From the IMG/VR virus record IMGVR_UViG_3300024346_000007: 64,000 nt of DNA. One strand, 5' to 3'. The translations under genes were made by a program, and so were the position numbers. The stretch is from a virus. The notes beneath the pieces were generated by a model. The model did no database searches, was not told where the DNA came from, and was given only the letters and a program-made list of their open reading frames with translations. Position 1 is the stretch's first letter. Every line of letters starts with the position of its first letter. Of this stretch, positions 3,701 to 50,261 are shown piece by piece.

Positions 3701-3718
3701 TAAAACCTATTTTAAGTG

Positions 3719-3726
3719 CAAAGATA
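3719..3726 (-). promoter_or_regulatory. Bacteroidota primary-sigma -7 element (TATCTTTG) upstream of glycosyltransferase cluster 2
   Basis: TATCTTTGCA on the minus strand in the short intergenic gap, 18 nt before ATG 3700; matches TAnnTTTG. Confidence 0.65.
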
Positions 3727-3743
3727 TGTAATTTATTTTATTA

Positions 3744-6835: not shown

Positions 6836-6836
6836 A

Positions 6837-8348: not shown

Positions 8349-8349
8349 G

Positions 8350-9045: not shown

Positions 9046-9050
9046 ATAAC

Positions 9051-12000: not shown

Positions 12001-14987
12001 GTACCAGTAGACCCAGATGATCCCGAAGTTCCACTTGTGCCGGAAGAACCATTTTGACCGGATGATCCAGATGAACCGTTTTGACCAGAAGAACCAGATG
12101 AACCAGTTGAACCAGAGCTACCAGAAGTGCCAGTTGAGCCAGATGATCCTGAGGTACCTGAAGTTCCTGATGAACCGGAAGTGCCACTAGTACCAGATGA
12201 ACCGTTTTGTCCAGATGATCCTGAGGTACCGCTAGATCCAGATGAACCTGAACTACCTGAAGTACCCGAAGATCCAGAGGTACCTGTACTACCTGAAGTT
12301 CCAGATGTACCGCTAGTACCTGAGCTACCGCTTGTACCTGAACTTCCAGAGGAGCCAGATGTACCAGAAGAACCAGAAGTACCCGAAGTTCCTGAAGAAC
12401 CTGATGTACCAAAAGTTTGTCCACTAGTACCTGCTGAACCAGATGTGCCTGCTGAACCAGAGGTTCCAGTAGAACCTGACGTACCTGCAGATCCAGAAGT
12501 ACCTGAAGTGCCAGAAGATCCAGATGTGCCTGAAGTTCCGCTGCTTCCTGATGATCCTGAGGTGCCAGTACTACCTGAGGATCCTGAAGACCCTCTAGTG
12601 CCAGAGGAGCCAGATGTACCAGAAGAACCAGAAGTACCTGATGAGCCTGAGCTACCAGATGAACCAGAAGTGCCAGAGGAACCGGATGTTCCAGATGATC
12701 CTGAGGAGCCAGCTCCTGTTACGTAACTTTTAATACCGTATATTCTTAGACTTTCTACGTACCATGTGCCTGCACCTGCTGTAGCAGTAACAGATACTGT
12801 TATTGCTTGACTTGTAGTTGCTAGTTCACTATATTTTAATACAGCTCCCATAGCAAATTGATCCCCAGCACCTGTAGCATCCCCTCTTAAAACTATTGAT
12901 CTTTTTACTACACCACCATATGAAAGATTAAATGTAGCTGTTGAGTTTGTATTTGCTTGAGTTAAATAGTCAATCTCAGCTTCAGCCATAATAAAATCAT
13001 ATGTATTGGCTGAGATTGTAAATGTTTTAGCGCTTGCATTTGTTGCTGTTCCCGTTGTTTCGATTTCATCTCTATATATTAGAGCAGAAGCCGATGGTAT
13101 AGTTACTGGGTCATATGAAAAACTAGTACCAGAAGTTCCAGATGATCCATTCTGACCAGAGGAGCCGGAAGAGCCGCTTGATCCAGAAGTACCGCTTGAC
13201 CCAGAAGAACCTCTAGATCCTGAAGAGCCAGATGATCCACTAGTACCTGAACTACCTGTTTCTCCTGAGGAGCCGGATGACCCTGTTTGACCAGATGATC
13301 CACTAGTACCTGTGGTTCCTGAGGTGCCGGTAGATCCAGATGATCCAGTAGTTCCAGAAGTTCCGCTAGTACCTGTAGACCCAGATGTACCAGAAGATCC
13401 TGTTACCCCACTAGTACCTGATGATCCACCTGTGCCAGAAGTACCAGTTGATCCAGATGTGCCAGATGTACCAGTTGATCCAGAAGAGCCGCTAGTTCCG
13501 GTGGAGCCGCTAGAACCAGATGTACCAGAAGAACCTGATGAGCCTGAACTTCCTGTAGAACCTGATGAGCCGCTAGTACCTGTAGAACCTGATGTTCCAG
13601 CAGTGCCAGATGATCCAGAGGAACCATTTTGACCAGATGATCCAGAGGTTCCGGATGATCCAGAAGATCCATCTCCACCACTAGCACCTGCTAGGTTAAC
13701 TTGCCAAGAACAATAATTTCCACTTCCGACAGTTACATTTGGAATACTATATACTAACACTCCTGTAGATGGGTTATATGATACTACACTTGCTTCTTGG
13801 TAATTATTAACATCATAAGACATTAAGAAAGTCTGTGCAGTAGAATAAGACAATCCTAACTCTACAGTAATAGATCCACTTTGTCCTAAAGTTGCACAAG
13901 TAGTGGAGGTAGTTAAGTATCTATCTCCAGATCTTCCAGCTGATCCAGATGTTCCACTAGTGCCAGATGTACCTGTTGATCCAGATGTTCCACTAGTGCC
14001 AGAAGTACCAGTAGAACCTGCAGTGCCAGATGTTCCCGTAGAACCAGATGAACCAGAAGTTCCGCTTGTTCCGGTAGATCCAGATGTACCTGAGCTGCCA
14101 CTAGTTCCAGAAGAGCCAGATGAGCCGCTAGTTCCAGAAGATCCTGAGGAGCCTGAGCTACCACTAGTACCTGTTGATCCAGATGAACCAGTACTTCCTG
14201 AACTACCTGAGGTTCCAGTTGAACCGGATGAACCAGTAGATCCAGAAGAGCCAGTAGATCCAGACGTACCTGTTGAACCGCTAGAGCCTGTTGATCCAGA
14301 TGTGCCACCACTTCCAGAAGAACCAGAAGTGCCTGATGTGCCACCACTTCCAGAAGAGCCTGAGGTTCCGGATGAACCAGATGTGCCGTCACTTCCAGTA
14401 GATCCGGAGGTTCCACTAGTTCCAGATGTTCCGCTAGCCCCACTGGATGAGTATTTGAACTCTCCAGTAATGGGATCTACTACAACAAATAAATCAGCAC
14501 TGCTTGTATATTGTAAGTGTGGATCATATATTGATCCTGATATATATAAAGATCCTGTAAATTCATGTGTATCATCTATGGTATCTCCAAATTTAGTAGA
14601 TCCAGATGCATATATTATTGACGAAGATTGATAAGTAACTATCAACATATCAATAGAAGCAGTACCACGTAGTACTAAATCTCCATATATAGACTGACTA
14701 CCATAAAAAATATTAGACCCCGTGGTAGCTAAAGATTCAGATTTTGCTACAAATACAGGATCTACTTCATCAAAATGAGATGCAGATATTGCATAACTTG
14801 CACTTATAGCCCATGATGCTGTTTGAGATACTCCTTCAAAAGACCCTGAGAAGGTTCCATTAAAAGAGCCTGTAAATGATCCTGTAAAAGAAGAGCTAAC
14901 AGAGTTAGCTACGATTGTATTGTATACCGTAACATTGTTATATGTAGCATTCCCATCCTGAGGGGTTATCTGGAGCCAAGTAGCCAT
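9051..14987 (-). CDS. Long tail fibre with Gly-Ser/Thr collagen-like repeats, GIGTTxP repeats and a C-terminal peptidase S74 intramolecular chaperone
   Basis: Four (G-S/T-S)n tracts; repeated GNVGIGTTSP; C-terminal SDKRFKINV...RGVEFDW...GVIAQE...VKYEKIIPLLIEGIKE plus coiled coil. Confidence 0.85.
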   Translation of the reverse strand: MATWLQITPQDGNATYNNVTVYNTIVANSVSSSFTGSFTGSFNGTFSGSFEGVSQTASWAISASYAISASHFDEVDPVFVAKSESLATTGSNIFYGSQSIYGDLVLRGTASIDMLIVTYQSSSIIYASGSTKFGDTIDDTHEFTGSLYISGSIYDPHLQYTSSADLFVVVDPITGEFKYSSSGASGTSGTSGTSGSTGSDGTSGSSGTSGSSGSGGTSGTSGSSGSGGTSGSTGSSGSTGTSGSTGSSGSTGSSGSTGTSGSSGSTGSSGSTGTSGSSGSSGSSGTSGSSGSSGTSGSSGTSGSTGTSGTSGSSGSTGTSGTAGSTGTSGTSGTSGSTGTSGTSGTSGSAGRSGDRYLTTSTTCATLGQSGSITVELGLSYSTAQTFLMSYDVNNYQEASVVSYNPSTGVLVYSIPNVTVGSGNYCSWQVNLAGASGGDGSSGSSGTSGSSGQNGSSGSSGTAGTSGSTGTSGSSGSTGSSGSSGSSGTSGSSGSTGTSGSSGSTGTSGTSGSTGTSGTGGSSGTSGVTGSSGTSGSTGTSGTSGTTGSSGSTGTSGTTGTSGSSGQTGSSGSSGETGSSGTSGSSGSSGSRGSSGSSGTSGSSGSSGSSGQNGSSGTSGTSFSYDPVTIPSASALIYRDEIETTGTATNASAKTFTISANTYDFIMAEAEIDYLTQANTNSTATFNLSYGGVVKRSIVLRGDATGAGDQFAMGAVLKYSELATTSQAITVSVTATAGAGTWYVESLRIYGIKSYVTGAGSSGSSGTSGSSGTSGSSGSSGSSGTSGSSGTSGSSGTRGSSGSSGSTGTSGSSGSSGTSGTSGSSGTSGTSGSAGTSGSTGTSGSAGTSGSAGTSGQTFGTSGSSGTSGTSGSSGTSGSSGSSGTSGSSGTSGTSGTSGSTGTSGSSGTSGSSGSSGSSGTSGSSGQNGSSGTSGTSGSSGTSGTSGSSGSTGTSGSSGSTGSSGSSGQNGSSGSSGQNGSSGTSGTSGSSGSTGTSGSSGSTGTSGSSGTSGSSGQNGSSGTSGTSGSTGTSGTSGSSGSSGSRGSSGSSGSTGTSGSSGSTGTSGSSGSTGTSGSSGTSGSTGTSGTSGSSGTGFNTIHTPAIGRILLADNSTNAATASVSMSFNNGVLLLTGSILATGNIQANTLIVQTISSSVIYSSGSNIFGDNLSDSHEFTGSVKVTGSVSIKNLALNAGLTQFVVIDPTTGQLYYNISGAAGSSGTSGSSGSSGSSGSSGSRGSSGSTGSSGSSGSTGTSGSSGSTGSSGSTGSSGSSGQNGSSGSSGSTGTSGSSGSSGSSGQNGSSGSSGQNGSSGTSGSSGVSPTITGTAYYVPRYNAAGNALENTTAMIYNNGNNVGIGITTPNAKLHISGASASNALNVHRLSGYASIYGTNDLILETDSTFYIGEYAAKPIYFNGANGVPGTVYIASDGKMGIGTTSPAVKLHIVGPSLTQNSEATYGLWVSNTVTPSKALVLGYDTTNDAAQINAVHQGVAWKNISMQTNGGSLLIGETTTPYLSKFAVSYDASTTNGPIFLDNRTFGSGKGGALHLGGRYNTAGSYRPFGSIVGAKENATDGNSAGYLDFYTNSDAADPSQKVRITSAGYVGIGTTSPQSLLHVAGTLSYGSVRISPTSTNGEAAMGFYSDTAGSTTNTSWVVGQGGWGNSGKFVIGNENGSAGGNVRLLIEPSGNVGIGTTSPQADLHVYRAGSTAGTTIGLKVNHECNAVDFVVLFTGNESVSTNRFVMTQGGDIGIGTTTPTAKLQVSGSTNVVNIIGSGSLASSSLFSVDGNNGRLFEITDDLSDSIFSANTIAGLPAIEAFSDYTVTLGQYSSAGSTLRVSGSNVLIYTGSLAVGNIVPSTTRGRIDATNDIVAYSTSDKRFKINVTEIANAIGKINEIRGVEFDWLTNPEYHGNQGHDVGVIAQELEKVLPEVVTTRESGYKAVKYEKIIPLLIEGIKEQQKQIEDLQKQIDYLTNK
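11025..14440. repeat. Four low-complexity coding tracts of Gly-X-Y triplets (GSS/GTS/GST)
   Basis: Approximate tracts 13930-14440, 13130-13690, 11700-12720 and 11025-11345. Confidence 0.9.
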
Positions 14988-38245: not shown

Positions 38246-38276
38246 CAAAGATACGACTAAATATCTTTTCTCCAAA
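38246..38276 (-). promoter_or_regulatory. Complete Bacteroidota-type promoter, TTTG-N19-TATCTTTG, upstream of the primase
   Basis: Plus strand caaagata at 38246-38253 and caaa at 38273-38276, a 19-nt spacer. Confidence 0.7.
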
Positions 38277-38691
38277 ACTTACCGAGAATGTTATCAACAT
38301 AGCAGTTTGTAGACTCTAAGCACCCATTTATAATCTGGTGTCTTAGCTCTTGGTATGTCATCTGTTTCTTGTGGGTACATATGTGCATTATCTCCCTAAT
38401 AAAGGATTCTTTACCTAGCTCCTTTACATCGACCTTAAGAGCTGCGTTAGACCCGTAATAGGTCTTCCAATCGCTTTCAGAGACTACCTTCTTTTTAGTA
38501 GGTTTCTTACCCTTACCGGTATGCTCTGATAGCTCCTTTTTTGTTAGAGGTTTATTCCTCTCTGATATTAGATTCTTTCTGCCTATGTAGAATTTGCCCC
38601 CGTCTATCTTTCTTATCTTATAGATGAAACCGTATGCATTTTCTGGAAACTGAGAGATGTCTGTTATAACCTGACCTTTGTAAAACCACAT
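38257..38691 (-). CDS. GIY-YIG endonuclease (T4 endonuclease II / Seg-like)
   Basis: YGFIYKI...FYIGRK...ESDWKTYYGS...FIREI. Confidence 0.8.
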   Translation of the reverse strand: MWFYKGQVITDISQFPENAYGFIYKIRKIDGGKFYIGRKNLISERNKPLTKKELSEHTGKGKKPTKKKVVSESDWKTYYGSNAALKVDVKELGKESFIREIMHICTHKKQMTYQELRHQIINGCLESTNCYVDNILGKFWRKDI

Positions 38692-38692
38692 A

Positions 38693-38992
38693 TTATATAT
38701 CCATTCTAATTAAGAAATTCGTATCTGTATTTGCTGATATCGGCACTGGCTGTGCAAACTTAGCTACCATCAATAAATCATTAGCGTCATTATAAAACCC
38801 TACTGCACTTGCATATGGCATGAAATCAGACCCTGTTGCAAAAGCTAACATAGTTTCTTCGCTTCCTGAATTTAATAAAGATGGGTTGTAGCTATAGTTC
38901 ATCTCATGATCTTTAATAGTACATTTTATAGTACGTTCTATAATCATGTGATTATTAGTAAAGTTAAGTTTAAAATCTTGATAAGTTATCAT
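38693..38992 (-). CDS. Stand-alone C-terminal module of a baseplate/tail protein, paralogous to the C-terminus of 48574..49602
   Basis: MNYSYNPSLL...VGFYNDANDLLMVAKFAQPVP versus LNYTTNPSII...IGLYNDANELLAVAKLSKPLP. Confidence 0.7.
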   Translation of the reverse strand: MITYQDFKLNFTNNHMIIERTIKCTIKDHEMNYSYNPSLLNSGSEETMLAFATGSDFMPYASAVGFYNDANDLLMVAKFAQPVPISANTDTNFLIRMDI

Positions 38993-39004: not shown

Positions 39005-40045
39005 TTAGCCACATGTTCCAGGACTCACACTAGTACATGTATTAACAGATACTACTCTTCCTGTAGGAATTACAACAGCAGAATAACCATTTCCCATATT
39101 TCCTACTCTAGTTATTCTGTGATACAATCCGTCTCCTCCAGTCCATAAAGTATATGTTGTTCCAGATTTAGTGTATAAATACTGGGCTACCAGTAGATTT
39201 TCATTTGAAACTGTTGCGTATACTGTTGTTGTTGGTAATACTGTAGAATCACAAGCGGCTCCACAATTTGCATAACCAACAGAAGATATAGAGTAATCAT
39301 AATAAGTGACATCAGAACAGTTATACGAGGTAGATAGGCTTCCTCCGTTGACTACAGATACCCCATTTACTTTTGTTATTGTTACAGTAGCTTGACCGTT
39401 TGTAAAATTTGATGCTAAATTATTAGTCCTGTAAACTAATATGTAATCTTTGTATCCTATTGATGGGGATGTAACTGTCGTAACTTGTGTATTTGTTAGA
39501 GATGTTGGTATTCCAGCTAAAGTTACACTAGCGTATGAAGATGTTACCACTGTTCCTAGTGCTGGAATTGATGCAGGCAGCACCGTCTCGTACAATATGC
39601 CGGATATAGAAGCACTTACAGAGTTTATACTAGTTATAAATTGTTGAGAAGTTACTGTAAACTCTACTGTTGTTCCTGCTGGTGCTACTAGCCTTGACCA
39701 TATTCTGCCGCCACTTCCACAGTTATTACTGCTATTTGTAAAATTACTATCGAAGTATATAGGAGCTTGTGTCGGAGTTGGAGATACCGTAGGGGTTGGA
39801 GTTATTGTGGGAGTTGGTGTGGGAGTTGGAGTAGACAGATTTATGTTTAAAGAAGTAGTACATGTGCCGATAGACGTAACAGTTATAACAGTAGCGTTTA
39901 CATCTACATTTACAGGATACCCTGCTAATAGCTGTGATCTAGTGACATTCATTGCAACCACTCCTAATACATTATCAGATATGTTAAAAGGTCCTGCTGA
40001 GGCTCCTATACTTGATACTGTTACTGTTATTGATTTAGTAGACAT
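39005..40045 (-). CDS. Pro/Thr-linker, Ser/Thr/Cys-rich putative virion decoration protein
   Basis: N-terminal AGPFNI...VTRSQLLAGY domain, TPTPTP linker, beta-rich domains. Confidence 0.6.
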   Translation of the reverse strand: MSTKSITVTVSSIGASAGPFNISDNVLGVVAMNVTRSQLLAGYPVNVDVNATVITVTSIGTCTTSLNINLSTPTPTPTPTITPTPTVSPTPTQAPIYFDSNFTNSSNNCGSGGRIWSRLVAPAGTTVEFTVTSQQFITSINSVSASISGILYETVLPASIPALGTVVTSSYASVTLAGIPTSLTNTQVTTVTSPSIGYKDYILVYRTNNLASNFTNGQATVTITKVNGVSVVNGGSLSTSYNCSDVTYYDYSISSVGYANCGAACDSTVLPTTTVYATVSNENLLVAQYLYTKSGTTYTLWTGGDGLYHRITRVGNMGNGYSAVVIPTGRVVSVNTCTSVSPGTCG

Positions 40046-40066
40046 TTTTTATTTTTATTATTATGT

Positions 40067-40801
40067 TTAGACCTGTGCGCTTCCACAGATTAAAGCCCTA
40101 TCAGTATTAGCATTAACAGTAACGGAAGAAATAGAACTACCGCCAACACTAGCAGGACAAGTGGCGGTAGTAGAGACACCGGTATAGTACACAAGAGTCT
40201 CATCTGATCCATCAGCAACACAATAATACACTGTAGTGCCTGGGGCAACCGTAGCTAAGTACTTAATAGTACAATTAGATGCTAATGCCGATCCTCTTCT
40301 AGTCCAACTACCAGGGTCTCCAGTTGGAGAAGTCCATACAGCAACAGCGTCAATTGGTGCATCTTCTACATCAAATTTAGCATATATACTAAGCGTATAG
40401 GTTGTTACTGTTGGTGTTGGGGTTGGTGTTGGTGTAGCTGTTGGTGTTGGGGTAGCTGTTACTGTTGGTGTTGTGGTAGGCGGTGGTGTCGGCTCTATAA
40501 CAGACCCTCCAGATAGAGAACAATCTACTACTACAGTAGGGGTTGGGGTTGGTGTAGGGGTGACTGTAGGAGTTGCAGTCGGAGGTTTTATATAATAGGT
40601 AACATAGTTATTACATCCTGAGTCCGTATTAAATACTATTATGCTATTTGCTGATGAAGGTATTCCTGTTACGTTGTAGCCTGTCAAAAGATTACTTCTG
40701 GACACACCAGTGTCTAACTGAGTACCAACTGATATACTGTCGTAGTATATGTCAAATGGCCCAGCAGCATCCCCAGAAATAAAAACTTGATAGTTGTTCA
40801 T
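40067..40801 (-). CDS. Pro/Thr-linker putative virion decoration protein; N-domain shared with 39005..40045, C-domain shared with 3744..5075
   Basis: AGPFDI...VSRSNLLTGY; the C-terminal 111 aa align without gaps to the 443-aa protein. Confidence 0.65.
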   Translation of the reverse strand: MNNYQVFISGDAAGPFDIYYDSISVGTQLDTGVSRSNLLTGYNVTGIPSSANSIIVFNTDSGCNNYVTYYIKPPTATPTVTPTPTPTPTVVVDCSLSGGSVIEPTPPPTTTPTVTATPTPTATPTPTPTPTVTTYTLSIYAKFDVEDAPIDAVAVWTSPTGDPGSWTRRGSALASNCTIKYLATVAPGTTVYYCVADGSDETLVYYTGVSTTATCPASVGGSSISSVTVNANTDRALICGSAQV

Positions 40802-41889
40802 ATATTATAAATATTTTCTTTCTGGCTTTTATGTAAAGCAGAAGCCACAACTTGGTGCATATCATAATATTTGTAGTCTGTAAGCCTCCCACCAAAGATG
40901 TATTTTGTCTCTTTGTCCATCATCTTTTTATAATTTTGGTACAACAAGTTATTAGTATCATCATTTATTGGGTAATATGGATCTCCTGTGGATTCTGGGT
41001 ACTCAAATGTTACCACAGTATTCTTTTGTTTTCCAAATTCAAAATGTTTATGTTCTACTATCCTAGTAAAAGGCACTTCCTCATCAGTATAATTCATACC
41101 AGCAACACCTTGATAATCAGACATATTTAGTCTTATAGTATCAAATCTGAGGCTTCTATATTCTAACTTTCCGTACATATATGAGTAAAATCTATCTATG
41201 GGGCCTGTATATATGATTTTCTTACATATATCGTTAAAATAGTCCTTGTTGTTAAAATAATCAGTATCTAGGCGTACTTCTATGCCTGATAATAGGTTTT
41301 CAAATATCTGTGTGTATCCGCCTATTGGTATTCCTGAATACGTGTCTTCGTAGTAATTATCTTCAAAAGACATTCTTATAGGAAGCCTTCTTATTATGCT
41401 TGTCGGTAGCTCTTTTGGGTCTTTTTTCCATTGTTTTTTGGTGTACCCCTTCACAAATATATTGTACAGTTCAGGGCCTACTTGAGATAGAATCCACTCC
41501 TCTAGGTTCTTTGGGTTTGGTATATCTACTTTAACATCCTCTAGCTTTCTAAAAGCCTCATCTGGAGTTGTTACTCCATATACCTGATATAGAGTCATGA
41601 GATTTATAGGGAATGAGTATACTTTTCCTTTATAATTTACTTTAGGCCTGTAGCTAAAGTTATTAAACGTAGCGAATCTATTCACATAGTCCCATATCTT
41701 TTTATCTGATGTGTGGAATATATGAGGTCCGTATTTGTGAACATTTATTCCATCTATATTCTCCGTATAGCAGTTTCCTCCTATATGAGATCTTTTTTCT
41801 ACAACAAGGCATTTGTACCCTTTGTCCGTCATCTCTCTTGCGAAGATAGACCCAAATAATCCTGATCCTACTATTAAATAGTCGTACAT
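40798..41889 (-). CDS. glf: UDP-galactopyranose mutase
   Basis: IVGSGLFG, HIGGNCY, HKYGPHIFHT, GYTKKQW, LEYRSL, TRIVEHKHF, PYYP, GRLTDYKYYDMHQVV. Confidence 0.95.
   Translation of the reverse strand: MYDYLIVGSGLFGSIFAREMTDKGYKCLVVEKRSHIGGNCYTENIDGINVHKYGPHIFHTSDKKIWDYVNRFATFNNFSYRPKVNYKGKVYSFPINLMTLYQVYGVTTPDEAFRKLEDVKVDIPNPKNLEEWILSQVGPELYNIFVKGYTKKQWKKDPKELPTSIIRRLPIRMSFEDNYYEDTYSGIPIGGYTQIFENLLSGIEVRLDTDYFNNKDYFNDICKKIIYTGPIDRFYSYMYGKLEYRSLRFDTIRLNMSDYQGVAGMNYTDEEVPFTRIVEHKHFEFGKQKNTVVTFEYPESTGDPYYPINDDTNNLLYQNYKKMMDKETKYIFGGRLTDYKYYDMHQVVASALHKSQKENIYNI
40806..40813 (-). promoter_or_regulatory. TATTTATA motif within the glf 3' end, upstream of the Pro/Thr genes
   Basis: 4 nt before ATG 40801. 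Confidence 0.45.
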
Positions 41890-41894
41890 ATTAT

Positions 41895-42500
41895 TTATTT
41901 CTTCTTTAAAAAATATCTAGCAGTATTACAGATATTAGCATTTAGCATTATTTCGTATCCTGGGAAGTATTGCTTTATATATTCTGCGTCTATTAATCCG
42001 TGAAACTCTATATCTACCCACCTAATCTGCTGTAAGTAATTAGAATTTTCAATAACATTAAACTCTCCTCCTTCAATATCCATTTTAAGAAAATCTACTA
42101 TCGGTAGTTCTAGTTCTTCTAAGGTTTTTATTTCTACATTAAAAAAACTGGTATTAACATAAGAACTTTCTCTTAGGCTATGGCCTCCAACATTATTAAT
42201 ATCTTCCGCCAAAACTCCAGAAGTGAAGTTATATCCAATAGCTGTCTTATATAAATTACTTTTGTTTTTAATGTGATTTTGTAAAAAAGTAAAATTGCCT
42301 TCTTCAGGCTCTATTAAATAAGCATCTTGTAGGGTAGGTATTTGTTCAAATAAAATATTAGAAAACTCACCTATGTTCGCTCCTACATCAACATACGAAA
42401 TAATTTTATTTAACTTCAGAGTAGTTATAAGAGCTATAAAATAAGGCTCTTCAGTTAGTTCTTTTCTAGTATGATTTATGTGCCCTTCTCTAGTAAGCAT
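41895..42500 (-). CDS. FkbM-family methyltransferase
   Basis: YVDVGANIG, LIEP, FLKMDIEGGEF, IEFH. Confidence 0.85.
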   Translation of the reverse strand: MLTREGHINHTRKELTEEPYFIALITTLKLNKIISYVDVGANIGEFSNILFEQIPTLQDAYLIEPEEGNFTFLQNHIKNKSNLYKTAIGYNFTSGVLAEDINNVGGHSLRESSYVNTSFFNVEIKTLEELELPIVDFLKMDIEGGEFNVIENSNYLQQIRWVDIEFHGLIDAEYIKQYFPGYEIMLNANICNTARYFLKKK

Positions 42501-42567
42501 TTGTATTATTTTAATATGTCTAGTTAATTTATATTGTGATAATTACAACATATTTTACATTGTGTAT

Positions 42568-43341
42568 CTAATATTTTATAAAGTTATCGCAATATATATC
42601 TTTTGTATCTAAATTATTAGCGGCTGGTCCAAACCAAGTTTTAGGTGCTATTATTTTTTTATTATCGTTATTTGATAACCAAGATCCCCACCAACTATAG
42701 CTGCTATTTGCTATTATATGATCATGGCATTTAGATATTAAACACATGTCATATATCGGACTATTAGAATTAAATACTATATTTTTTCTTTTAAGGTTTT
42801 CTTCACACCAATTTTTATCATCAGATGTACATATAAAGATTGTATTGCCATCATCTAATGTGTCCATGGATTTATTATAATAGTCTATTGTACACAATGG
42901 ATGATACTCAGTATTAAATAGATATCCAGCTCTCCTTACATGTAAAGATACTAATTTTTTATTTTTAAATTGATTTATATAGATATCAACTTCTTTTACT
43001 GTATCCTCTTTAAAAGTAAACTCCTTCTTAACAATAGCAGAACAGTGTTTAAAATACTTATCTGTTTGAAAATATCCTTCAAAGTCTGTATCTTCTTTTA
43101 TTTCAAAAACTCCCTCATTATAAGAAAATTCAATTTCTTTGTACAAATTATTTGGTTTAATTGTTTTTTTTACAAACTCTTTTAAATCAAAAAATTCAAA
43201 TAAATAACAATTTTTTACTATTTCTGGGTCTATTGCTATTCTGGCGTTTAATTTATATTTTATACCTAATAGAAGGGCATATTGAAACATTTGATTTCCT
43301 AATTGTCCATATACTCCAAGTTTACTAAAAGACACTTCCAT
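42568..43341 (-). CDS. GT11 alpha-1,2-fucosyltransferase-like
   Basis: GQLGNQMFQYA, GYFQ, SLHVRRAGY (HxRRGD variant), SDD..WC, IIANSSYSWWG, IIAPKTWF. Confidence 0.9.
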   Translation of the reverse strand: MEVSFSKLGVYGQLGNQMFQYALLLGIKYKLNARIAIDPEIVKNCYLFEFFDLKEFVKKTIKPNNLYKEIEFSYNEGVFEIKEDTDFEGYFQTDKYFKHCSAIVKKEFTFKEDTVKEVDIYINQFKNKKLVSLHVRRAGYLFNTEYHPLCTIDYYNKSMDTLDDGNTIFICTSDDKNWCEENLKRKNIVFNSNSPIYDMCLISKCHDHIIANSSYSWWGSWLSNNDNKKIIAPKTWFGPAANNLDTKDIYCDNFIKY

Positions 43342-43343
43342 AA

Positions 43344-44030
43344 TTATAAAATCATGTTATTATCATACCTTGCTTGCACAGATGGGTAGTAATCCACTTG
43401 AGTCTCTTCTAGGGTAGAATACCCTGGGATTTGCCAAGCTAGATTTTTATTGCACATATATAAATTATTTTGATGGTCTAGGGCTAGATCATGATAGCAT
43501 ATGTCAATTACCGGTATATGTTTAAACGGTATTTTTAATATTTTATCATAAAAATGATTATTAACTGCATATGCATGTGCTGATAGTGCGCCTAATGACC
43601 TGCCTAGGTTATCTGTTACCTTTTGGTATATTAATGGGTTACAACCTATATAAAACATATCCCATCTTTCCCTTATCTTTAAGTCTTCTATTGTTTTAGA
43701 TAACTCCTCTATTATATCATCATGTAATGTAACATCATCTTCAAAAATTAGTACATTTTTATACTGCATTAATTTTGCTCTAAGTACTACATTTATGTGT
43801 GATAAAGCACAAGATTTTGTAAACCTGGCATGTTCAGGTCTTTCATCGTTTCTAAAAAAACAACCATCTTGTTTAATACTTTCATTTTGTTCAGGAGATA
43901 GTGTTATTGCTGGGAATCTTTCTGCTTTTATGCCAAACTTAGAAAATAATTTTTCTATATGGTCTTTTCTATCTGTTCTCTCTTCTAGATTTATGTAGAA
44001 TATTTTATCAAAAAAATCAAAAGGATTCAT
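43344..44030 (-). CDS. GT25 glycosyltransferase (beta-galactosyltransferase-like)
   Basis: FYINLEERTDR, ERFPAI, SCALSH, LIFEDDV, WDMFYIG, HAYAV. Confidence 0.85.
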   Translation of the reverse strand: MNPFDFFDKIFYINLEERTDRKDHIEKLFSKFGIKAERFPAITLSPEQNESIKQDGCFFRNDERPEHARFTKSCALSHINVVLRAKLMQYKNVLIFEDDVTLHDDIIEELSKTIEDLKIRERWDMFYIGCNPLIYQKVTDNLGRSLGALSAHAYAVNNHFYDKILKIPFKHIPVIDICYHDLALDHQNNLYMCNKNLAWQIPGYSTLEETQVDYYPSVQARYDNNMIL

Positions 44031-44035
44031 ATTTT

Positions 44036-45172
44036 TTAAAATTTATTTATAAAATCAATCCACATTGGACCTATCTTTTTTATGTCAAAGTTTTCAAAAA
44101 TATAAGATATACTCTTATCTCTCATACTTTCTTTTAATTCTATGTTCTCTTCTATCTGTTTTACTTTTTCTACAATATTATCTATGTAATCCATCTTAGG
44201 CTCATGTGTAACCCTCTCACTCATCATTCTTTCCATATCTATATTCGGAGGAAAATCTAGCTTATAATAATATCCTCCATAATACTCTTCATGGGATCCT
44301 AAAGGATATGATACTACTATTACTCCCATACCTAAAGCCTCTCCCATTGCACAAGAGTGAACATCTTTATACACATGTTCATTTGGAGTGTATTGTGGGA
44401 ATATAAAATAATCACTCGTGGCTAGTTCAGTAAATAATGTTTCTTTATCTATCCCATTTCCTAAATTAACATAGTCAAATGCTACAAAATTTTCATCCCA
44501 TCCTAACTCTTTTACAGCCTTTAAAGCTACATCTCCTCCTCTAGACCATTGAGCTGGGAACACTACTTTCTTATGCTTTCTTTCTAGTTTCTTATCCAAC
44601 ACTTCTTTCATTACATCAAGTGTCATTGGATTAGGTATAACAGTTTCGTATACAGTTGGTATATTTTCTTCTAAGTATTTTATATTTTCTAAATGATGCT
44701 CTCTAGCCCATTTTGATATATTAACATATCCAACTTTTAAATTATGTTTAATTGCATAATCTTTTAACTCTGCCATATAATATCCCCATGATAGATGACA
44801 CCAATAAAAAACTCCTCTTTTTATTTTTGCATTCAAATTATCATACTCACCAAACCATAAACAGTTGACCAGTATGTCAAAGTTAACATCTTCAATACCT
44901 TCTAAATTTGGTATATAAGTATATGTTACCCCGTTAACAATTTCCTTACCTGGATTAAAGGTATACCCTCTATTGTTTCTATCTTCTTTTAGATTATCTC
45001 CTGACTCTTCTACTGCTACTACTACTTCATGGCCATTATTTGCTAGATATTCTGCAACAAGTATGCTAGAGGTGTCAGTACCTGATAAACCCGCCTTGTC
45101 ATATCTCATTTTATGACCGGTTATAAAATTACTTCTTGACCCGTTTCCTGTTACAACAAATAATATTCTCAT
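44036..45172 (-). CDS. GT-B fold (GT4-like) glycosyltransferase
   Basis: GLSGTD...LANNGHEV, WCH, ISKWAREH, IPNP, SRG, SCAMGEALGMG. Confidence 0.7.
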   Translation of the reverse strand: MRILFVVTGNGSRSNFITGHKMRYDKAGLSGTDTSSILVAEYLANNGHEVVVAVEESGDNLKEDRNNRGYTFNPGKEIVNGVTYTYIPNLEGIEDVNFDILVNCLWFGEYDNLNAKIKRGVFYWCHLSWGYYMAELKDYAIKHNLKVGYVNISKWAREHHLENIKYLEENIPTVYETVIPNPMTLDVMKEVLDKKLERKHKKVVFPAQWSRGGDVALKAVKELGWDENFVAFDYVNLGNGIDKETLFTELATSDYFIFPQYTPNEHVYKDVHSCAMGEALGMGVIVVSYPLGSHEEYYGGYYYKLDFPPNIDMERMMSERVTHEPKMDYIDNIVEKVKQIEENIELKESMRDKSISYIFENFDIKKIGPMWIDFINKF

Positions 45173-46422
45173 ACATTAATATCTTTTTCGTATCTATCAC
45201 TCCACTTTTTTTCTTCATCAAACATGTACATTACTATCTTACCTGGTTTGTCTTGAGAGTCTATTGTGACTGTATATTCATTTTTTGTAAGGTTAACATA
45301 CTCTGGTTGCGTGTCTACATTAAAATCTTTTCTATGTAATTCCAATCCAGATTTTGTTTGTATTCCGAGTGTTATGAATTGGGGACTTTTAAATTCTAAA
45401 TTTTTGAAAAACTCTATATCCCAGTCAACTGTTACATCGTATTTATATGTCTTAAACTGTTCTTCCCAATCTATTGGGTTTGGCGGTTCTTTAACTTTAA
45501 TAGTGTAGTCTTGTATTCTACAATTTTTAAAATCAAAACCTCCATATACTTCGTAATCATGTAAAGTTCTGGCTGTTCCTAATCCGTATATACCCATATC
45601 TATTCCATGATCTTCTTGACCAAATAGTTGCCTAGTCTTATTTCTGGCATATATATCTCTTTCTCCTGAAGTCTTTTTTGTGGCGCTTTCTAAACCATGA
45701 TCTTCCCAATGTTTACGCCTATAATTCCTAGTGTATTCGTGCCACATAACCATTCTATATGGGCTGTACATATCATATCCGTGCGTAAAGGCTCTTACGC
45801 TTAACGTAGTCTCCTCAGTATATCCACCAAAATAAATGTCTGGGTCATACCTAACTTCGTCTATAAATTTACCGTCTACAAAATAAAAATGACCGCTGAT
45901 AGTTCTTGCTTTTATTACTTTGGTTCTCTCCTTATAATCCTGAATATACCACGGCATGCTCATTAAAAGCTTATCATATGAAAACTCATACTGGGACATT
46001 AAAGATGGCAATTTTTCATAACTACATCTGCACTCTTCTGGATCAAACGGAGTACAGTATGTGGTAATAATAGGCTTTTCAGACACTTCCAAAGCCTGTG
46101 CATAGTCTTCCATCATTATCTCATCCCACCCATCAACAAACCTATGATGACTGTCTATTTGTAATGTGTATTTCTCTCCATCATACAAGCTGTTGGTGAC
46201 GTTTCTAGCCCATCCTAATCCTGCACTCTCGCTATAGTGGTATTTTTTTATACGGAAGTTTGGCTTATCATCAAAGATTTCGGTATCTTCTTCTTCATCG
46301 TATTGCCAGCATATTCCAAATGTAAGTCGTTCAGGGTTTTTAGCCCTAGATAGCATGTCATCTATAGTAAGTATTAATTGTGGGTCCCTATAGCTTGCTA
46401 TCTGTACAAATATTTTATCCAT
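45169..46422 (-). CDS. GT60-family polypeptide alpha-GlcNAc transferase (Skp1-Hyp Gnt1 / mucin OGNT-like)
   Basis: IFVQIASYRDP, FGICWQ, GLGWAR, YTLQIDSHHRF..GWD, FYF, YDP.IYF, EE..LSVRAFTHGYD.YSP, WHEY; extra C-terminal domain of about 95 aa. Confidence 0.85.
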   Translation of the reverse strand: MDKIFVQIASYRDPQLILTIDDMLSRAKNPERLTFGICWQYDEEEDTEIFDDKPNFRIKKYHYSESAGLGWARNVTNSLYDGEKYTLQIDSHHRFVDGWDEIMMEDYAQALEVSEKPIITTYCTPFDPEECRCSYEKLPSLMSQYEFSYDKLLMSMPWYIQDYKERTKVIKARTISGHFYFVDGKFIDEVRYDPDIYFGGYTEETTLSVRAFTHGYDMYSPYRMVMWHEYTRNYRRKHWEDHGLESATKKTSGERDIYARNKTRQLFGQEDHGIDMGIYGLGTARTLHDYEVYGGFDFKNCRIQDYTIKVKEPPNPIDWEEQFKTYKYDVTVDWDIEFFKNLEFKSPQFITLGIQTKSGLELHRKDFNVDTQPEYVNLTKNEYTVTIDSQDKPGKIVMYMFDEEKKWSDRYEKDINV

Positions 46423-46444
46423 AACACTTTTTTAAAAATAATGA

Positions 46445-46452
46445 CAAATATA
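46445..46452 (-). promoter_or_regulatory. Bacteroidota -7 element (TATATTTG) upstream of the GT60 operon
   Basis: Plus strand caaatata in the intergenic gap, 22 nt before ATG 46422; no exact -33 TTTG. Confidence 0.55.
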
Positions 46453-46495
46453 GTATTTTTTACACACTTTACTACATTTTTACTATAATATTATA

Positions 46496-48556
46496 TTAGG
46501 ATCCCTCACCACCGCAGCTTACACAATTAAATGCCCCTGTTGGTGTTGCAGTAAAGTTAGTTCCATCTCTTGTAAATTCTCTAGAGTCTGCCCCATCAGA
46601 TAACCAGAAAGTTCCGTTATTATCAACTTCAGCATCAAAGCAAGCCTGGCTAGACACTAGTATAAATATGTTAGTGCATAGACACAGTGTAGCAGTTCCT
46701 CCAAATGATAAATTAACATTGGTACATCCTAAGACCACATTACACGCATCTGCCGGTGTATTTGCTGATAAACTATACACTATAGGCACAGGTGTTGGAG
46801 TAGGAGTGGGAGTGGGTGTAGGAGTAGGTGTAGCTGTTGGAGGTTCAGGGGTAGGTGTAGGGGTAGGTGTAGCTGTAGGTGGTAATGGGGTAGGTGTAGG
46901 TGTAGGAGTAGGAGTTGCCGTTGCTGGTATAGGAGTAGCTGTAGCTGGCAACGGAGTTGCCGTTGCTGGTATAGGAGTAGCTGTAGCTGGCAACGGAGTT
47001 GCCGTTGCTGGTAATGGAGTAGGGGTAGCTGGCAACGGAGTTGCCGTTGCTGGTAATGGAGTAGGGGTAGCTGGCAACGGAGTTGCCGTTGCTGGTAATG
47101 GAGTAGGGGTAGGAGTGCCGCAGTTAGTTTGGTTTTGTAAGTTTCCAGCAAAAGCAGATGTATTCCAATAATTAATGCCATTAGAATAGAATCCATCTCC
47201 TACAGGGCTTGTTAAGCCGCTATCCTGATACAATATAACTCCGTTAGCCAAAACAGATGTTCCTGGTGCCGCATAATAGGTATTTGTAAATAAAGTAGGG
47301 TACCTACCACATGCCTCTAGGCCGCTAAGACTGCTATACGCTAATAAGAAAGAAGTGTAAGCAGGAGTTGGCGTTGGTGTAGCTGTTGCTGGTAAAGGAG
47401 TAGGTGTAGGAGTAGGAGTAGCTGTAGCTGGCAACGGAGTTGCCGTTGCTGGTAATGGAGTTGCCGTTGCTGGTAATGGAGTAGCTGTAGCTGGTATAGG
47501 AGTGGCCGTTGCTGGTAGTGGTGTAGCTGTAGCTGGTAGTGGTGTTGGAGTAGCTGTTGATGTTGGAGTAGGAGTAGCTGTTGATGTTGGAGTAGGTGTA
47601 GCTGTTGGTGTTGATGTTGGAGTAGAAGTAGGCGTAGGTGTAGGAGTTGGGGTTAAGTATATAGCATATACTATAAACTTACACAGTGGTTTAGAAACCT
47701 TAGCTTCTATAGTTGCATAGTTTGATTTAAGAATACAGCTACTACCAGAGATACTAGTAGAGAATCTATACTTAGTTGTATAGGTTCCTATAACACTACT
47801 ATTTAGAGTTACAGTTCCGTTACCATTATTAGAAAAATAAGAAACATCAGAGCCTGACAACTCTATTGATCCAGTCAAAGCAGTCCATCCTTTAGTATTA
47901 TCATTTACTAAAGGACTTATTATTTTAGGAGACGTAGAGGATGAAAAAGATATGTAATCATCCTTTGCATATGGAGGTATTGGAAATATACTCTGATAAT
48001 CTGGGTGGGTGATTATTATCAACCCATGCTCATAAAATATATTACCAACTAAAGTATTTACTGCTGCGACATCATATATGTTACCTTTTCCATCATCCTG
48101 TAAATTCATGAAGGATGTAGATATATTAAAGGATATTTTTTTTACTGACGTGCTGAATACCTCTTTAGATATGGATAATACTTTAATGGTGGCATCAGAT
48201 CCACTAGGAAAATCTTTGATCATATACCCTTGAGGAGTATAATCATAATAGGACCCAGAAGGCCTATATATAGATGCGCTAGCGTAGTTTAATGATTCTA
48301 AATTTGATGAATTATCTAGATAAGACCCAGAAAATGACTGATAATACAAATGGTTTACTGAATCATAAACCAATCTATCGTACTCATTATTGGTCTTGAT
48401 ATCGTTATTATAGTCGAATATACTGCCGGTTTTTACACCATTGTATACTCTAATTCCATAAGACTCTAAATCACATACACTAACACTCCAATTTTTATTT
48501 GCTAAGTATGGAATGTTAGCTATATCTGACTTATATAAACGTTTGTATGCCGACAT
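46496..48556 (-). CDS. Baseplate/tail protein N-terminal module fused to an Ig-like domain, mucin-like PLPATAT arrays and Cys-rich tip modules
   Basis: LQDDGKGNI...VGNIFYEHGLIIIT; PYAKDD...PLVND (Big/cadherin-like); two Pro/Thr arrays. Confidence 0.7.
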   Translation of the reverse strand: MSAYKRLYKSDIANIPYLANKNWSVSVCDLESYGIRVYNGVKTGSIFDYNNDIKTNNEYDRLVYDSVNHLYYQSFSGSYLDNSSNLESLNYASASIYRPSGSYYDYTPQGYMIKDFPSGSDATIKVLSISKEVFSTSVKKISFNISTSFMNLQDDGKGNIYDVAAVNTLVGNIFYEHGLIIITHPDYQSIFPIPPYAKDDYISFSSSTSPKIISPLVNDNTKGWTALTGSIELSGSDVSYFSNNGNGTVTLNSSVIGTYTTKYRFSTSISGSSCILKSNYATIEAKVSKPLCKFIVYAIYLTPTPTPTPTSTPTSTPTATPTPTSTATPTPTSTATPTPLPATATPLPATATPIPATATPLPATATPLPATATPLPATATPTPTPTPLPATATPTPTPAYTSFLLAYSSLSGLEACGRYPTLFTNTYYAAPGTSVLANGVILYQDSGLTSPVGDGFYSNGINYWNTSAFAGNLQNQTNCGTPTPTPLPATATPLPATPTPLPATATPLPATPTPLPATATPLPATATPIPATATPLPATATPIPATATPTPTPTPTPLPPTATPTPTPTPEPPTATPTPTPTPTPTPTPVPIVYSLSANTPADACNVVLGCTNVNLSFGGTATLCLCTNIFILVSSQACFDAEVDNNGTFWLSDGADSREFTRDGTNFTATPTGAFNCVSCGGEGS
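46790..47655. repeat. Two coding tandem-repeat arrays (PLPATAT)n/(PT)n (about 46790-47115 and 47365-47655)
   Basis: Repeated ggagttgccgttgctggtaat / gtagctgtagctggcaac units. Confidence 0.9.
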
Positions 48557-48573: not shown

Positions 48574-49602
48574 TTAAAATTCTAATTTGACTCTACATGT
48601 TATCTGCTTGGTGAAATCTTTTGGCAAAGGTTTACTTAATTTAGCAACAGCCAAAAGCTCATTAGCATCGTTATATAATCCTATAGTTGTAGGAAATACC
48701 TGCGGATTGTCAATTAGTATTGAGTATAGTACATTTCCATTCTCATCTATAATAGATGGGTTTGTTGTATAGTTTAACTGAGAGCTTTTTGCATTTACAA
48801 AGAAGTATCTAGATGATATAGTCTCTTCGCTTTTTGCTTGAAATAATGATCCAGAATTGATTACTCTATATAATCTATCTGCATTTATATTATATACGGC
48901 TGTATATGATTTTGCATTTGTTTCGTCTATAGTCATTCCTATTCCTCCGTTAGCATATGATAGAGCCAGAGCTCTTGGGTTTAGAATATAAACCCCCATA
49001 TCTGGGAAGAAGTATCCGTAGCTGCCGCTATCGGTCTGTATTGATGATGTATTGTAGCTGCTACCGTTTGATCCGCTTACAATATAGTACACTCTATTTC
49101 CACCAATAAAACTATTTACAGAAGTGTCTTTACTATTGTCGGTCAAGTATATATAGCTACTACCATTCTTTAGAGCTAAGTTCCAAGTACCTGTATTAAT
49201 CTTTTCTTTATATCTAGATCTATTTACATTTATTGCAAATATGTCTCTAGATACACCTCCATTTCCACCGAAATTAAACACACTGCCTTCATCTCCGTAC
49301 ACTAAGTTTCTAAACTGTCCGTATATATCTCTGGTAGGAGTTTTTTCATCTACTAGGCTATTAAATACAGCAGATCCGCTACCTGATATATGTCCATAGG
49401 CAACAGAATATTGTACCTCAGACCCATCACTTCCGTATAGAAGGTTATATACATTTAGATAATACTTTCCAGTATTATCAGTTTGTTGAGTACTAGCTGT
49501 GTATGATGCTGTTAGATTGTATACGTTAGCCGTCCATATAGGGGCCGTTATAGCCTCTGAACTTATTACACTATCATCATCTTGAAATGGTATGAATGAC
49601 AT
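48574..49602 (-). CDS. Baseplate/tail structural protein
   Basis: C-terminal TTIGLYNDANELLAVAKLSKPLPK motif of tail/baseplate proteins; position in the module. Confidence 0.65.
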   Translation of the reverse strand: MSFIPFQDDDSVISSEAITAPIWTANVYNLTASYTASTQQTDNTGKYYLNVYNLLYGSDGSEVQYSVAYGHISGSGSAVFNSLVDEKTPTRDIYGQFRNLVYGDEGSVFNFGGNGGVSRDIFAINVNRSRYKEKINTGTWNLALKNGSSYIYLTDNSKDTSVNSFIGGNRVYYIVSGSNGSSYNTSSIQTDSGSYGYFFPDMGVYILNPRALALSYANGGIGMTIDETNAKSYTAVYNINADRLYRVINSGSLFQAKSEETISSRYFFVNAKSSQLNYTTNPSIIDENGNVLYSILIDNPQVFPTTIGLYNDANELLAVAKLSKPLPKDFTKQITCRVKLEF

Positions 49603-50261
49603 TATTTATTCTTTTTTACAGTTAATGGAATAGTAATTCTAGCACCTGAATCTCTTCCTACTACAGTTATGGTTGTGCTAAGACTTGTTAATGTGCTACC
49701 AAATAGGGTATCTATTGTGGTACCTACCAAAGTAAATGAAGTTCCAATGGCAGTCTTGCTTATTTGAGTTCCCGTAGTAGTGTTTAAATCAGATATGCCA
49801 AGATTAGTCGTGTCTATTCCTATACCTGTAAAGGTAGACAATAATCTTGCATCTCCAACAGTTACTACATATCCGCTAGGTTCGAATGTAGATGTAGCTC
49901 CTAAATAGTTCAAAGTCTGTGGAGTTATCACTATTGAAGCCGCTTGCTTAAGAACTATGCTAGCATACCCTACATTTATAACTGGGAGTTTGCTTGTTCC
50001 TCTAGGAAGTGTTACCAACTTATATTTCATAATTTGGTTCTCATCTGGGAATGCTTCTAATAGGGGTAGGTTTTCTATAGCTTCTCCATAAAAAGCCGAG
50101 CCTGAGGGGTGTGTTGTATTATACAACGTATAATCTATCTCATCATCAGCCATTGCAAACTGTGTAATCCTGAATGACCCATCGTTCCTGGCTAGGAGTT
50201 CCCTGCCTTTTTTAGTCAAAATTGCATCGACAGTTACTACATTATTGTTTAAATATCCCAT
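49602..50261 (-). CDS. Tail-collar-fibre-like baseplate protein
   Basis: DAILTKKGRELLA...FRITQFAMADD N-terminal motif. Confidence 0.6.
   Translation of the reverse strand: MGYLNNNVVTVDAILTKKGRELLARNDGSFRITQFAMADDEIDYTLYNTTHPSGSAFYGEAIENLPLLEAFPDENQIMKYKLVTLPRGTSKLPVINVGYASIVLKQAASIVITPQTLNYLGATSTFEPSGYVVTVGDARLLSTFTGIGIDTTNLGISDLNTTTGTQISKTAIGTSFTLVGTTIDTLFGSTLTSLSTTITVVGRDSGARITIPLTVKKNK

Follow-up and report, generated by a model that had tools for sequence, protein, structure and literature searches.

A predicted protein O-glycosylation cassette lies at positions 39005-48556 of a 64,000-nt stretch of viral DNA from IMG/VR record IMGVR_UViG_3300024346_000007. This whole stretch is referred to here as the window, and all positions follow its numbering. 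The region contains nine open reading frames (ORFs), all on the minus strand. In the order of transcription, these encode a 686-amino-acid (aa) protein with Pro-Thr (PT) repeats, six enzymes, and two further PT-linker proteins of 244 and 346 aa. A prior reading made from the sequence alone (the sequence-only reading) had described a tight six-gene operon with Pro/Thr-repeat genes on both sides, and the ORFs, their coordinates and the linkers were all confirmed. The nine genes are listed below, with the basis of each assignment in brackets.

46496-48556, minus strand: 686-aa modular fibre-like protein, predicted main acceptor (translation, domain map, repeats)
45169-46422, minus strand: GT60 (PF11397) glycosyltransferase of the GT-A type, predicted initiating polypeptide alpha-N-acetylhexosamine (HexNAc), probably N-acetylglucosamine (GlcNAc), transferase (Pfam, PHROG, AlphaFold2 (AF2))
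44036-45172, minus strand: GT-B-type glycosyltransferase, candidate second-step, possibly galactofuranose (Galf), transferase (weak Glyco_transf_4, phrog_2170)
43344-44030, minus strand: GT25-family glycosyltransferase, variable tailoring step (Pfam)
42568-43341, minus strand: GT11-family glycosyltransferase of the alpha-1,2-fucosyltransferase type, variable tailoring step (Pfam, phrog_2644)
41895-42500, minus strand: FkbM-family methyltransferase, probable sugar O-methylation (Pfam, TIGR01444)
40798-41889, minus strand: UDP (uridine diphosphate)-galactopyranose mutase (Glf), supplier of UDP-Galf, 3' end of the cassette (Pfam GLF, TIGR00031)
40067-40801, minus strand: 244-aa PT-linker protein (translation, domain map)
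39005-40045, minus strand: 346-aa protein with a short PT linker (translation, domain map)

The genes are closely packed. GT60 and GT-B overlap by 4 nt, as do the stop of Glf and the start of the 244-aa gene, and the remaining gaps measure 2-73 nt. The overlap of Glf with a PT gene is counted here as evidence of co-expression, i.e., of translational coupling; a scan for promoters and terminators yielded the same counts as in shuffled sequence. No transmembrane segment or signal peptide was found in any of the six enzymes or in any PT protein, which fits a modification that takes place in the cytoplasm.

Profile searches bore out five of the six enzyme families named in the sequence-only reading. 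GT60 matched PF11397 ('GlcNAc'; E 8.5e-61, 206.8 bits against a cut-off of 21) and phrog_24687 (E 1.2e-91). The GT25 and GT11 enzymes matched their Pfam profiles at E 2.4e-16 and E 1.3e-25, respectively, the latter also matching phrog_2644 (E 4.9e-72), and the methyltransferase matched FkbM (Pfam E 2.6e-12) as well as TIGR01444. Glf matched Pfam GLF (E 4.2e-75) and passed the TIGR00031 equivalog model, with 361.2 bits against a cut-off of 303.75. For the GT-B gene, the name glycosyltransferase stands through phrog_2170 (E 6e-9); the Glyco_transf_4 match is weak (E 1.3e-3) and, at 19.3 bits, falls under the Pfam cut-off of 28.5. Searches of GT60 and GT-B against PDB sequences with phmmer gave nothing meaningful, no NCBIfam model matched GT60, GT-B, GT25 or GT11, and megablast of the whole island against cultured phages returned no match.

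The AF2 model of GT60 (predicted local distance difference test score (pLDDT) of 82.5) shows a GT-A core with an extra C-terminal beta domain at about residues 325-417. When this model was compared with the PDB using Foldseek, the best 50 matches listed were all polypeptide GalNAc-transferases (ppGalNAc-Ts) of family GT27 (top E 4.4e-11), at only 10-15% sequence identity. That the nearest solved structures are polypeptide GalNAc-transferases supports a polypeptide acceptor. The residues D90-S-H92 (D-x-H) and H228 are invariant across 27 aligned GT60 sequences, and would be the metal ligands. GT60 is the GlcNAc-adding sister family of GT27 and lacks its ricin domain (PMC8724618); in protists, GT60 enzymes start mucin-type O-glycosylation on Thr (PMC8724618, PMC3769586). 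No ricin-type lectin domain was recognised in the phage GT60. Its C-terminal beta domain is confidently modelled, lies outside the Pfam model and is absent from the viral GT60 structures of about 300-350 aa in BFVD; by analogy, this domain could target the acceptor, in a role like that of the GT27 lectin domain. A complex prediction of GT60 with the 244-aa PT protein scored 0.00 and, having no controls, is not used either way.

The predicted acceptors are four PT-linker proteins, namely the three listed above and one of 443 aa encoded elsewhere in the window. Their linkers amount to 462 residues (176 Thr, 163 Pro, 70 Ala, 28 Leu and 7 Ser), that is, 38% Thr and 35% Pro, with a Thr:Ser ratio of 25:1; for comparison, Thr and Ser make up 8.2% and 9.4% of window ORFs of at least 150 aa. 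At the DNA level, the linkers are tandem arrays with a period of 21/42 nt that are up to 97% identical.

The 686-aa protein consists of a conserved N-terminal region (residues ~1-190), a cadherin/Ig-like beta-sandwich (~192-291), and two long PT/PLPATAT linkers (301-401 and 481-591) set between small Cys-bracketed domains. Using the AF2 model and a VIA search, residues 192-291 were matched to an extracellular cadherin (EC) domain of cadherin-23 (Z 10.0, root-mean-square deviation 2.6 Å over 91 residues); the N-terminus of the model is unreliable for residues 1-140 (pLDDT <50), and only 192-291 is interpreted. Relatives of this protein keep the N-terminus and vary widely in their distal modules and PT length, and tblastn with the N-terminal 300 residues gave no match. 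An identical GT60 protein occurs in four samples (among them loci L235 and L236), preceded by a PT protein of 672, 686 or 692 aa; the linker arrays are polymorphic in repeat length.

The 244-aa protein is laid out as a conserved 71-aa N-terminal domain, a PT linker, a VVDCxLSGGS mini-motif, a second PT linker and a variable tip. Its relatives likewise conserve the N-terminal domain and have swapped C-terminal tips, and its own tip shares 73% identity with the tip of the 443-aa protein. The 346-aa protein has a short PT linker (residues 71-95) and a 260-aa distal domain, and its homologues come after the 244-aa gene in L003-L007 and L020. A shared N-terminal domain of the 244- and 346-aa proteins was not found by BLASTP at E <0.01, the resemblance (GPF[DN]I...LLxGY) being visible by eye only. 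Conserved N-termini followed by varying distal modules or tips, as seen in the families of the 686- and 244-aa proteins, correspond to the anatomy of receptor-binding or fibre proteins.

GT60 genes and Pro-Thr repeats in phages and bacteria

One search of a set of 5.8 billion proteins returned 3,932 homologues of the phage GT60, and 46 related IMG/VR loci, on contigs of up to 335 kb, were compared with the window. In 26 of these 46 loci, the cassette has a PT-rich ORF no more than 300 bp away, and some of these 26 have flanking genes unlike those of the window. We then considered whole records, counting DNA that encodes (PT)4. Such DNA was matched in the GT60-positive records G001 (8 matches), G002 (10), G003 (15), XacN1 (7) and RAS14 (3), and not in GT60-positive G004, which is 51% complete; a reversed-pattern control gave 0.

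By its capsid protein, the window is related to Flavobacterium phage immuto (160 kb; 54% identity) and to Microcystis phage Mel-JY01 (52% identity). Both phages are GT60-less, and both have 0 matches to (PT)4-coding DNA. Among 33 capsid-related records, PT DNA was found in 4 of 6 that are GT60-positive and in 3 of 27 that are GT60-negative (Fisher p = 0.011), in a single clade that amounts to about one event. The two GT60-positive records without PT DNA are cut at GT60, the three GT60-negative records with it are fragments, and there were no PT matches in any of the 8 GT60-negative records of this capsid lineage that reach at least 80 kb. The co-occurrence of GT60 with PT-repeat genes across related phages, which the sequence-only reading had offered as a check, is thus seen both in gene adjacency and in this record-level association.

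The converse comparison begins from the repeats. PF11397 was found in 11 of 68 searchable IMG/VR records that had been drawn only for (PT)6-coding DNA, and 6 of 80 loci drawn in the same way contain GT60 within the locus; among cultured phages, PF11397 occurs in 4 of 50,697 records. A protein-atlas feature search gave scores <0.8, which are treated as leads only. In the cultured jumbo phage XacN1 (L001, 213138-232502), GT60 is followed by a carbamoyltransferase gene and lies about 9 kb from the gene of a 3,313-aa protein with (PT)4 repeats at record position 212808-212836.

Homologues of the phage GT60, often full length, are also present in many bacterial phyla, at 32-49% identity, and it is these genomes that provide the strongest test of the coupling. 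Fifty bacterial genomes with GT60 homologues were examined, not chosen for their PT content, and 30 of them contain (PT)4-coding DNA. In 10 of these 30, PT DNA falls inside the GT60 locus of at most 17 kb, against 0.47 expected (Poisson 9e-11), and in 6 genomes the PT DNA of the GT60 locus is the only (PT)4-coding DNA in the genome. In three hand-picked genomes of 12.8, 3.8 and 7.9 Mb, all of the matches (49, 5 and 42, respectively) adjoin GT60.

The bacterial PT proteins are of several kinds, and one locus is phage-like. In Paraburkholderia and Paraherbaspirillum they are VgrG spikes of the type VI secretion system (T6SS; Phage_GPD and Gp5_trimer_C domains) that end in long C-terminal (PT)n tails (L297:13078-15564, L288:11903-14389 and L303:13081-15534). 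A GT60 homologue is found some 4 kb away from each of these spike genes, which hold the only (PT)4-coding DNA in two of these genomes. In Acidobacteriota, Ferritin_2 lipoproteins adjoin GT60 homologues (L259:6613-7641, L262:10349-11461 and L273:5593-6699) and carry a signal like that of the twin-arginine translocation (Tat) pathway, a lipobox Cys and then a PT linker. Like phage fibres, the bacterial PT proteins all fold in the cytoplasm.

The tail-fibre slot and a second glycosylation island

The window derives from a T4-like myovirus. Genes for baseplate wedge, endolysin-like, primase, terminase, portal and major head proteins were recognised, in agreement with the assignment of the element to a phage in the sequence-only reading, and phages with this GT60 cassette probably infect Gram-negative hosts. 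Other features of the window that bear on the cassette are:

48574-50261, minus strand: conserved structural genes of 342 aa (48574-49602) and 219 aa, which precede the variable fibre slot (identity in relatives)
38693-38992, minus strand: 99-aa protein (BLASTP paralogy with the end of the 342-aa protein)
3744-5075, minus strand: 443-aa fourth PT-linker protein, P0121 (174 linker residues)
1139-3700, minus strand: 853-aa fusion of GT-B (Glycos_transf_1), FkbM and Methyltransf_24 domains (Pfam)

In close relatives, the 219-aa and 342-aa genes are 85-99% and 72-92% identical, respectively. In immuto, their homologues are followed by an annotated tail fibre and tail spike, and then by a homologue of a 144-aa HNH-like gene; the same slot in Mel-JY01 contains three large unnamed genes, and then primase. 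In the window, the island is located between the 342-aa gene and the HNH and primase genes. Because relatives carry tail fibre and spike genes at this site, the PT proteins and the cassette are taken to occupy a variable tail-fibre slot. This position suggests that the PT proteins are structural, and phage-encoded glycosyltransferases inside a tail-fibre slot are placed as would be expected of virion-glycosylation genes.

The 99-aa protein is paralogous to the C-terminal domain of the 342-aa protein, over its final ~70 residues (BLASTP 31% identity, E 4e-9). The possibility that its gene is the second half of a baseplate gene split by the island was considered and rejected, in view of this paralogy and of the tail fibre and spike genes that relatives have in the slot. 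Elsewhere among phages, the domain forms part of PT-linker proteins; it is matched by a 270-aa PT-linker protein in L042 and by longer proteins in L038 and L045. The 144-aa HNH-endonuclease-like gene (38257-38691) matches a PHROG named 'NAD synthetase', a name also used in immuto, which looks like an annotation error.

A second island, at 1139-5075, consists of the 853-aa fusion directly downstream of the 443-aa PT protein; the sequence-only reading had missed both. PT proteins are likewise found directly upstream of fusions of this type in the relatives L052 and L055. That a second glycosyltransferase/methyltransferase island also adjoins a PT protein supports the coupling between PT linkers and glycosylation. 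After the fusion comes a 291-aa gene (307-1182), whose internal MILILYSDKGCEHQA resembles the start of the gene that relatives have after the fusion (273-277 aa), and which in those relatives precedes a 693-aa gene. The second island lies within a collagen-like/LamG fibre module: positions 5624-14987 encode three LamG/ConA-like paralogues and, after them, a collagen-like fibre of 1978 aa that is built of GSS/GTS triplets, lacks proline and has a C-terminal end region like that of tail fibres. The Thr-rich triplets of this fibre are a plausible alternative glycosylation acceptor.

A predicted fibre O-glycosylation pathway and its alternatives

The gene content of the related cassettes bears on the nature of the glycan. 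GT60 and GT-B are adjacent in every uncut related locus, Glf is at the end of the cassette in 35 of the 46 loci, and minimal cassettes consist of GT60, GT-B and Glf. The middle of the cassette varies, with divergent FkbM genes (at the equivalent position in L020, L008 and L043), an S-adenosylmethionine (SAM) methyltransferase, a GT25-GT11 fusion (L023), or unknown genes. Outside the closest relative, L020, the GT25, GT11 and FkbM enzymes are 26-60% identical or missing, and GT25 in particular is 82% identical in L020 and 26-49% identical or absent in the other relatives. The glycan that the sequence-only reading had put forward as an example, Fuc-a1,2-Gal-b-GlcNAc, therefore does not hold for the cassettes as a group: with GT25, GT11 and the methyltransferase variable among loci, it is lineage-specific tailoring at best. 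By analogy, the conserved trio points to a core of GlcNAc and Galf, in which GT-B would, by elimination, be the candidate Galf transferase. Core 2 of Trypanosoma cruzi mucins is beta-Galf-(1-4)-GlcNAc-alpha-Thr, and requires Glf (PMC7504415; PMC3769586).

We put the probability at about 0.6 that the cassette encodes a cytoplasmic, mucin-type O-glycosylation pathway that acts chiefly on the Thr-rich PT linkers in the modular fibre or receptor-binding proteins of the phage itself. Late in infection, the soluble GT60 would attach a HexNAc to Thr residues of the 686-, 244-, 346- and 443-aa proteins, within their (P-T)n and PLPATAT tracts; judging from other members of the family, this sugar would be alpha-GlcNAc, donated by UDP-GlcNAc. 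GT-B and Glf would then add a Galf-containing extension, and the lineage-variable GT25, GT11 and FkbM enzymes would tailor the glycan, probably with galactose, fucose and O-methyl groups. The product may be a stiff, protease-resistant and hydrophilic stalk between a conserved anchor domain and swappable tips. We infer the donor sugar, the acceptor residue, the order of the steps, the role of GT-B and the incorporation of the PT proteins into virions. The proposal in the sequence-only reading that GT60 acts on the phage's own Thr/Pro linkers thus has strong circumstantial support, from co-occurrence and from the ppGalNAc-T-like fold, all of it comparative.

Several observations weigh against this pathway. 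In about 14 of the 46 related loci there is no PT gene nearby, and in the complete genome G002 the PT genes are at least 120 kb away from the cassette. In L011, L038 and L040, the fibres encoded next to the cassette are rich in Ser, Thr and Gly but have no PT runs; the enzymes may thus accept a broader set of sequences, or another one. Conversely, 57 of the 68 viral records selected for PT DNA, many of them fragments, have no GT60; PT linkers therefore do not need this enzyme. Lastly, GT25, GT11 and GT4-type enzymes are typical of lipopolysaccharide (LPS) and capsule pathways, and in Pootjesviridae a phage Glf is associated with hypermodified DNA (PMC13326640).

Virion glycosylation may be real and have its acceptors elsewhere, i.e., on collagen-like (G-S/T-S)n fibres, Ser/Thr-rich surfaces or heads, with the PT tracts serving as spacers. 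The 1978-aa collagen-like fibre and the S/T/G-rich fibres beside some related cassettes would suit such a role, and known phage virion glycosylation affects capsid and tail-tube proteins (Freeman et al. 2023, as cited in PMC12363180). The coupling, however, is to PT-coding DNA, even in bacteria without phage fibres or collagen repeats, and it recurs in phages of unrelated lineages; moreover, GT60 and GT27 enzymes favour Thr in a Pro-rich context (PMC8724618, PMC3769586). We consider acceptors of this other kind unlikely to be the principal ones.

The enzymes might instead build or remodel a glycan of the host envelope during infection, whether LPS or lipooligosaccharide (LOS), capsule, or a lipid-linked oligosaccharide; the purpose could be superinfection exclusion, receptor masking, or a glycan to which virions bind. 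GT25, GT11, GT4-like enzymes and Glf are indeed usual in O-antigen and LOS clusters, according to the Pfam descriptions, and in one source GT60 homologues are automatically named 'glycosyltransferase involved in cell wall biosynthesis'. Yet none of the genes in the cassette encodes an initiating phosphoglycosyltransferase, a flippase, a polymerase or a transporter, none of its enzymes has a membrane segment, the cassette sits among fibre genes and is coupled to them in translation, and an envelope role would leave the genome-wide coupling of GT60 to PT repeats unexplained. An envelope pathway thus seems improbable.

Glycosylation of phage DNA against restriction, i.e., a hypermodified base bearing Gal or Galf and further sugars, with Rhizobium phage RL38J1 as the model, is very improbable: phage Glf and several glycosyltransferases are tied to hexosylated 5-hydroxycytosine in a T4-like family (PMC13326640), the window Glf is 43% identical to the RL38J1 enzyme, and the GT60 gene of XacN1 lies near replication genes, but the modification needs a thymidylate-synthase homologue, and PF00303 is absent from G001 (137 kb, 80% complete), the complete 335-kb G002 and G004 (51% complete), being present in one of the four GT60-cassette records tested (G003 only), the GT60 fold matches polypeptide transferases rather than DNA glucosyltransferases, and the PT coupling would be left unexplained. 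A search for Tet/JBP enzymes gave no match, but the control for that search was silent as well. The DNA-hypermodification and host-envelope readings are both weakened by these data.

Beyond glycosylation of the phage's own fibre linkers, a broader proposal can be made, if tentatively and at rather less than even odds. A widespread prokaryotic and phage system may exist in which soluble enzymes of the GT60 clade O-glycosylate PT linkers, the targets being proteins that reach their folded state in the cytoplasm and then leave the cell without being unfolded for Sec. Phages would have built variable Galf/Fuc/methyl glycans on what was one GlcNAc residue, and eukaryotic mucin-type O-glycosylation by GT60 and GT27 enzymes could have its prokaryotic root in this clade. 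The acceptor classes could then comprise phage fibres, (PT)n-tailed T6SS VgrG spikes and Tat-exported lipoproteins.

Related systems and implications

The closest known enzymes are the protist GT60s, namely the T. cruzi mucin pp-alphaGlcNAcT, Dictyostelium pp-alphaGlcNAcT2 and Skp1 Gnt1. These belong to the same family, with a GT-A fold and a D-x-H motif, and they act on Thr/Pro-rich, mucin-like tracts, which in the phage are predicted; in addition, T. cruzi core 2, with Galf on GlcNAc-Thr (PMC7504415), mirrors the conserved pairing of GT60 and Glf. Unlike the protist enzymes, the GT60 described here is a phage or bacterial gene product, is soluble without a Golgi anchor, has the extra C-terminal beta domain, and has fibre linkers as its predicted acceptors. 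The GT27 enzymes of animals and apicomplexans, the nearest solved structures, share the D-x-H metal motif, but are Golgi-lumenal type II membrane proteins. They favour Thr near Pro.

Prolyl hydroxylation is relevant to the comparison with Skp1. A domain of the prolyl 4-hydroxylase type, PF13640, was not found in the incomplete records of three close relatives (G001, G073 and G078), and it is present in G002, far from the cassette. Elsewhere in IMG/VR, divergent GT60 genes adjoin a PF13640 2-oxoglutarate (2OG)-Fe(II) oxygenase at L136:57-5801 and L082:56-6448; further neighbours are a radical-SAM/SPASM enzyme, an epimerase and a PT-rich protein of 719 aa in L136, and a carbamoyltransferase in L082. 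This neighbourhood recalls, by analogy, the logic of the Skp1 prolyl hydroxylase and Gnt1.

Among phages, the mycobacteriophages Che8, Corndog and Myrna similarly encode glycosyltransferases that modify their own virion proteins in the cytoplasm (Freeman et al. 2023, as summarised in PMC12363180 and PMC12582341). Their acceptors are capsid and tail-tube proteins, shown experimentally, whereas here they are PT fibre linkers, predicted from genes alone; the initiator GT60 and the T4-like phage background also set the present case apart. A T4-like phage with Glf and several glycosyltransferases is likewise found in Pootjesviridae, whose DNA contains glycosylated 5-hydroxycytosine (PMC13326640). 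That system, however, needs a ThyA-like 5-hydroxydeoxycytidine monophosphate (5hodCMP) synthase, absent from most of the GT60-cassette relatives tested, and its glycosyltransferases resemble DNA glycosyltransferases.

Giant viruses (chloroviruses and mimiviruses) likewise encode multi-enzyme glycan synthesis that is independent of the host secretory pathway, and GT60-like structures occur in Megaviridae and Pandoravirus. Their hosts are eukaryotic and the linkages differ from the phage case; we know of no association with PT linkers described for these viruses. In the serine-rich-repeat (SRR) adhesins of Gram-positive bacteria, GtfA and GtfB initiate O-GlcNAc glycosylation on long, stalk-like Ser/Thr repeats in the cytoplasm, neighbouring strain-variable glycosyltransferases extend the glycan, and export proceeds through accessory Sec. 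The SRR initiator differs in being a GT-B pair rather than GT60, and the repeats in being Ser-rich rather than Pro-Thr.

GT60 has so far been treated as a protist family, and no functional description of a phage or bacterial GT60 was found in the literature searched. Experimentally shown virion glycosylation in phages is confined, in the literature reached, to a few mycobacteriophages (PMC12363180). If the pathway proposed here is correct, thousands of environmental phage sequences, as judged from the number of GT60 homologues, would have mucin-like glycosylated fibres, with a bearing on host recognition, particle stability, resistance to proteases and grazing, and antigenicity. The PT tracts of VgrG spikes and Tat lipoproteins beside GT60 would then represent a new route of cytoplasmic protein O-glycosylation, and PT linkers could be glyco-engineered in E. 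coli with the cassette as a small set of soluble enzymes. The same enzymes would also provide a testable candidate for a prokaryotic origin of mucin-type O-glycosylation.

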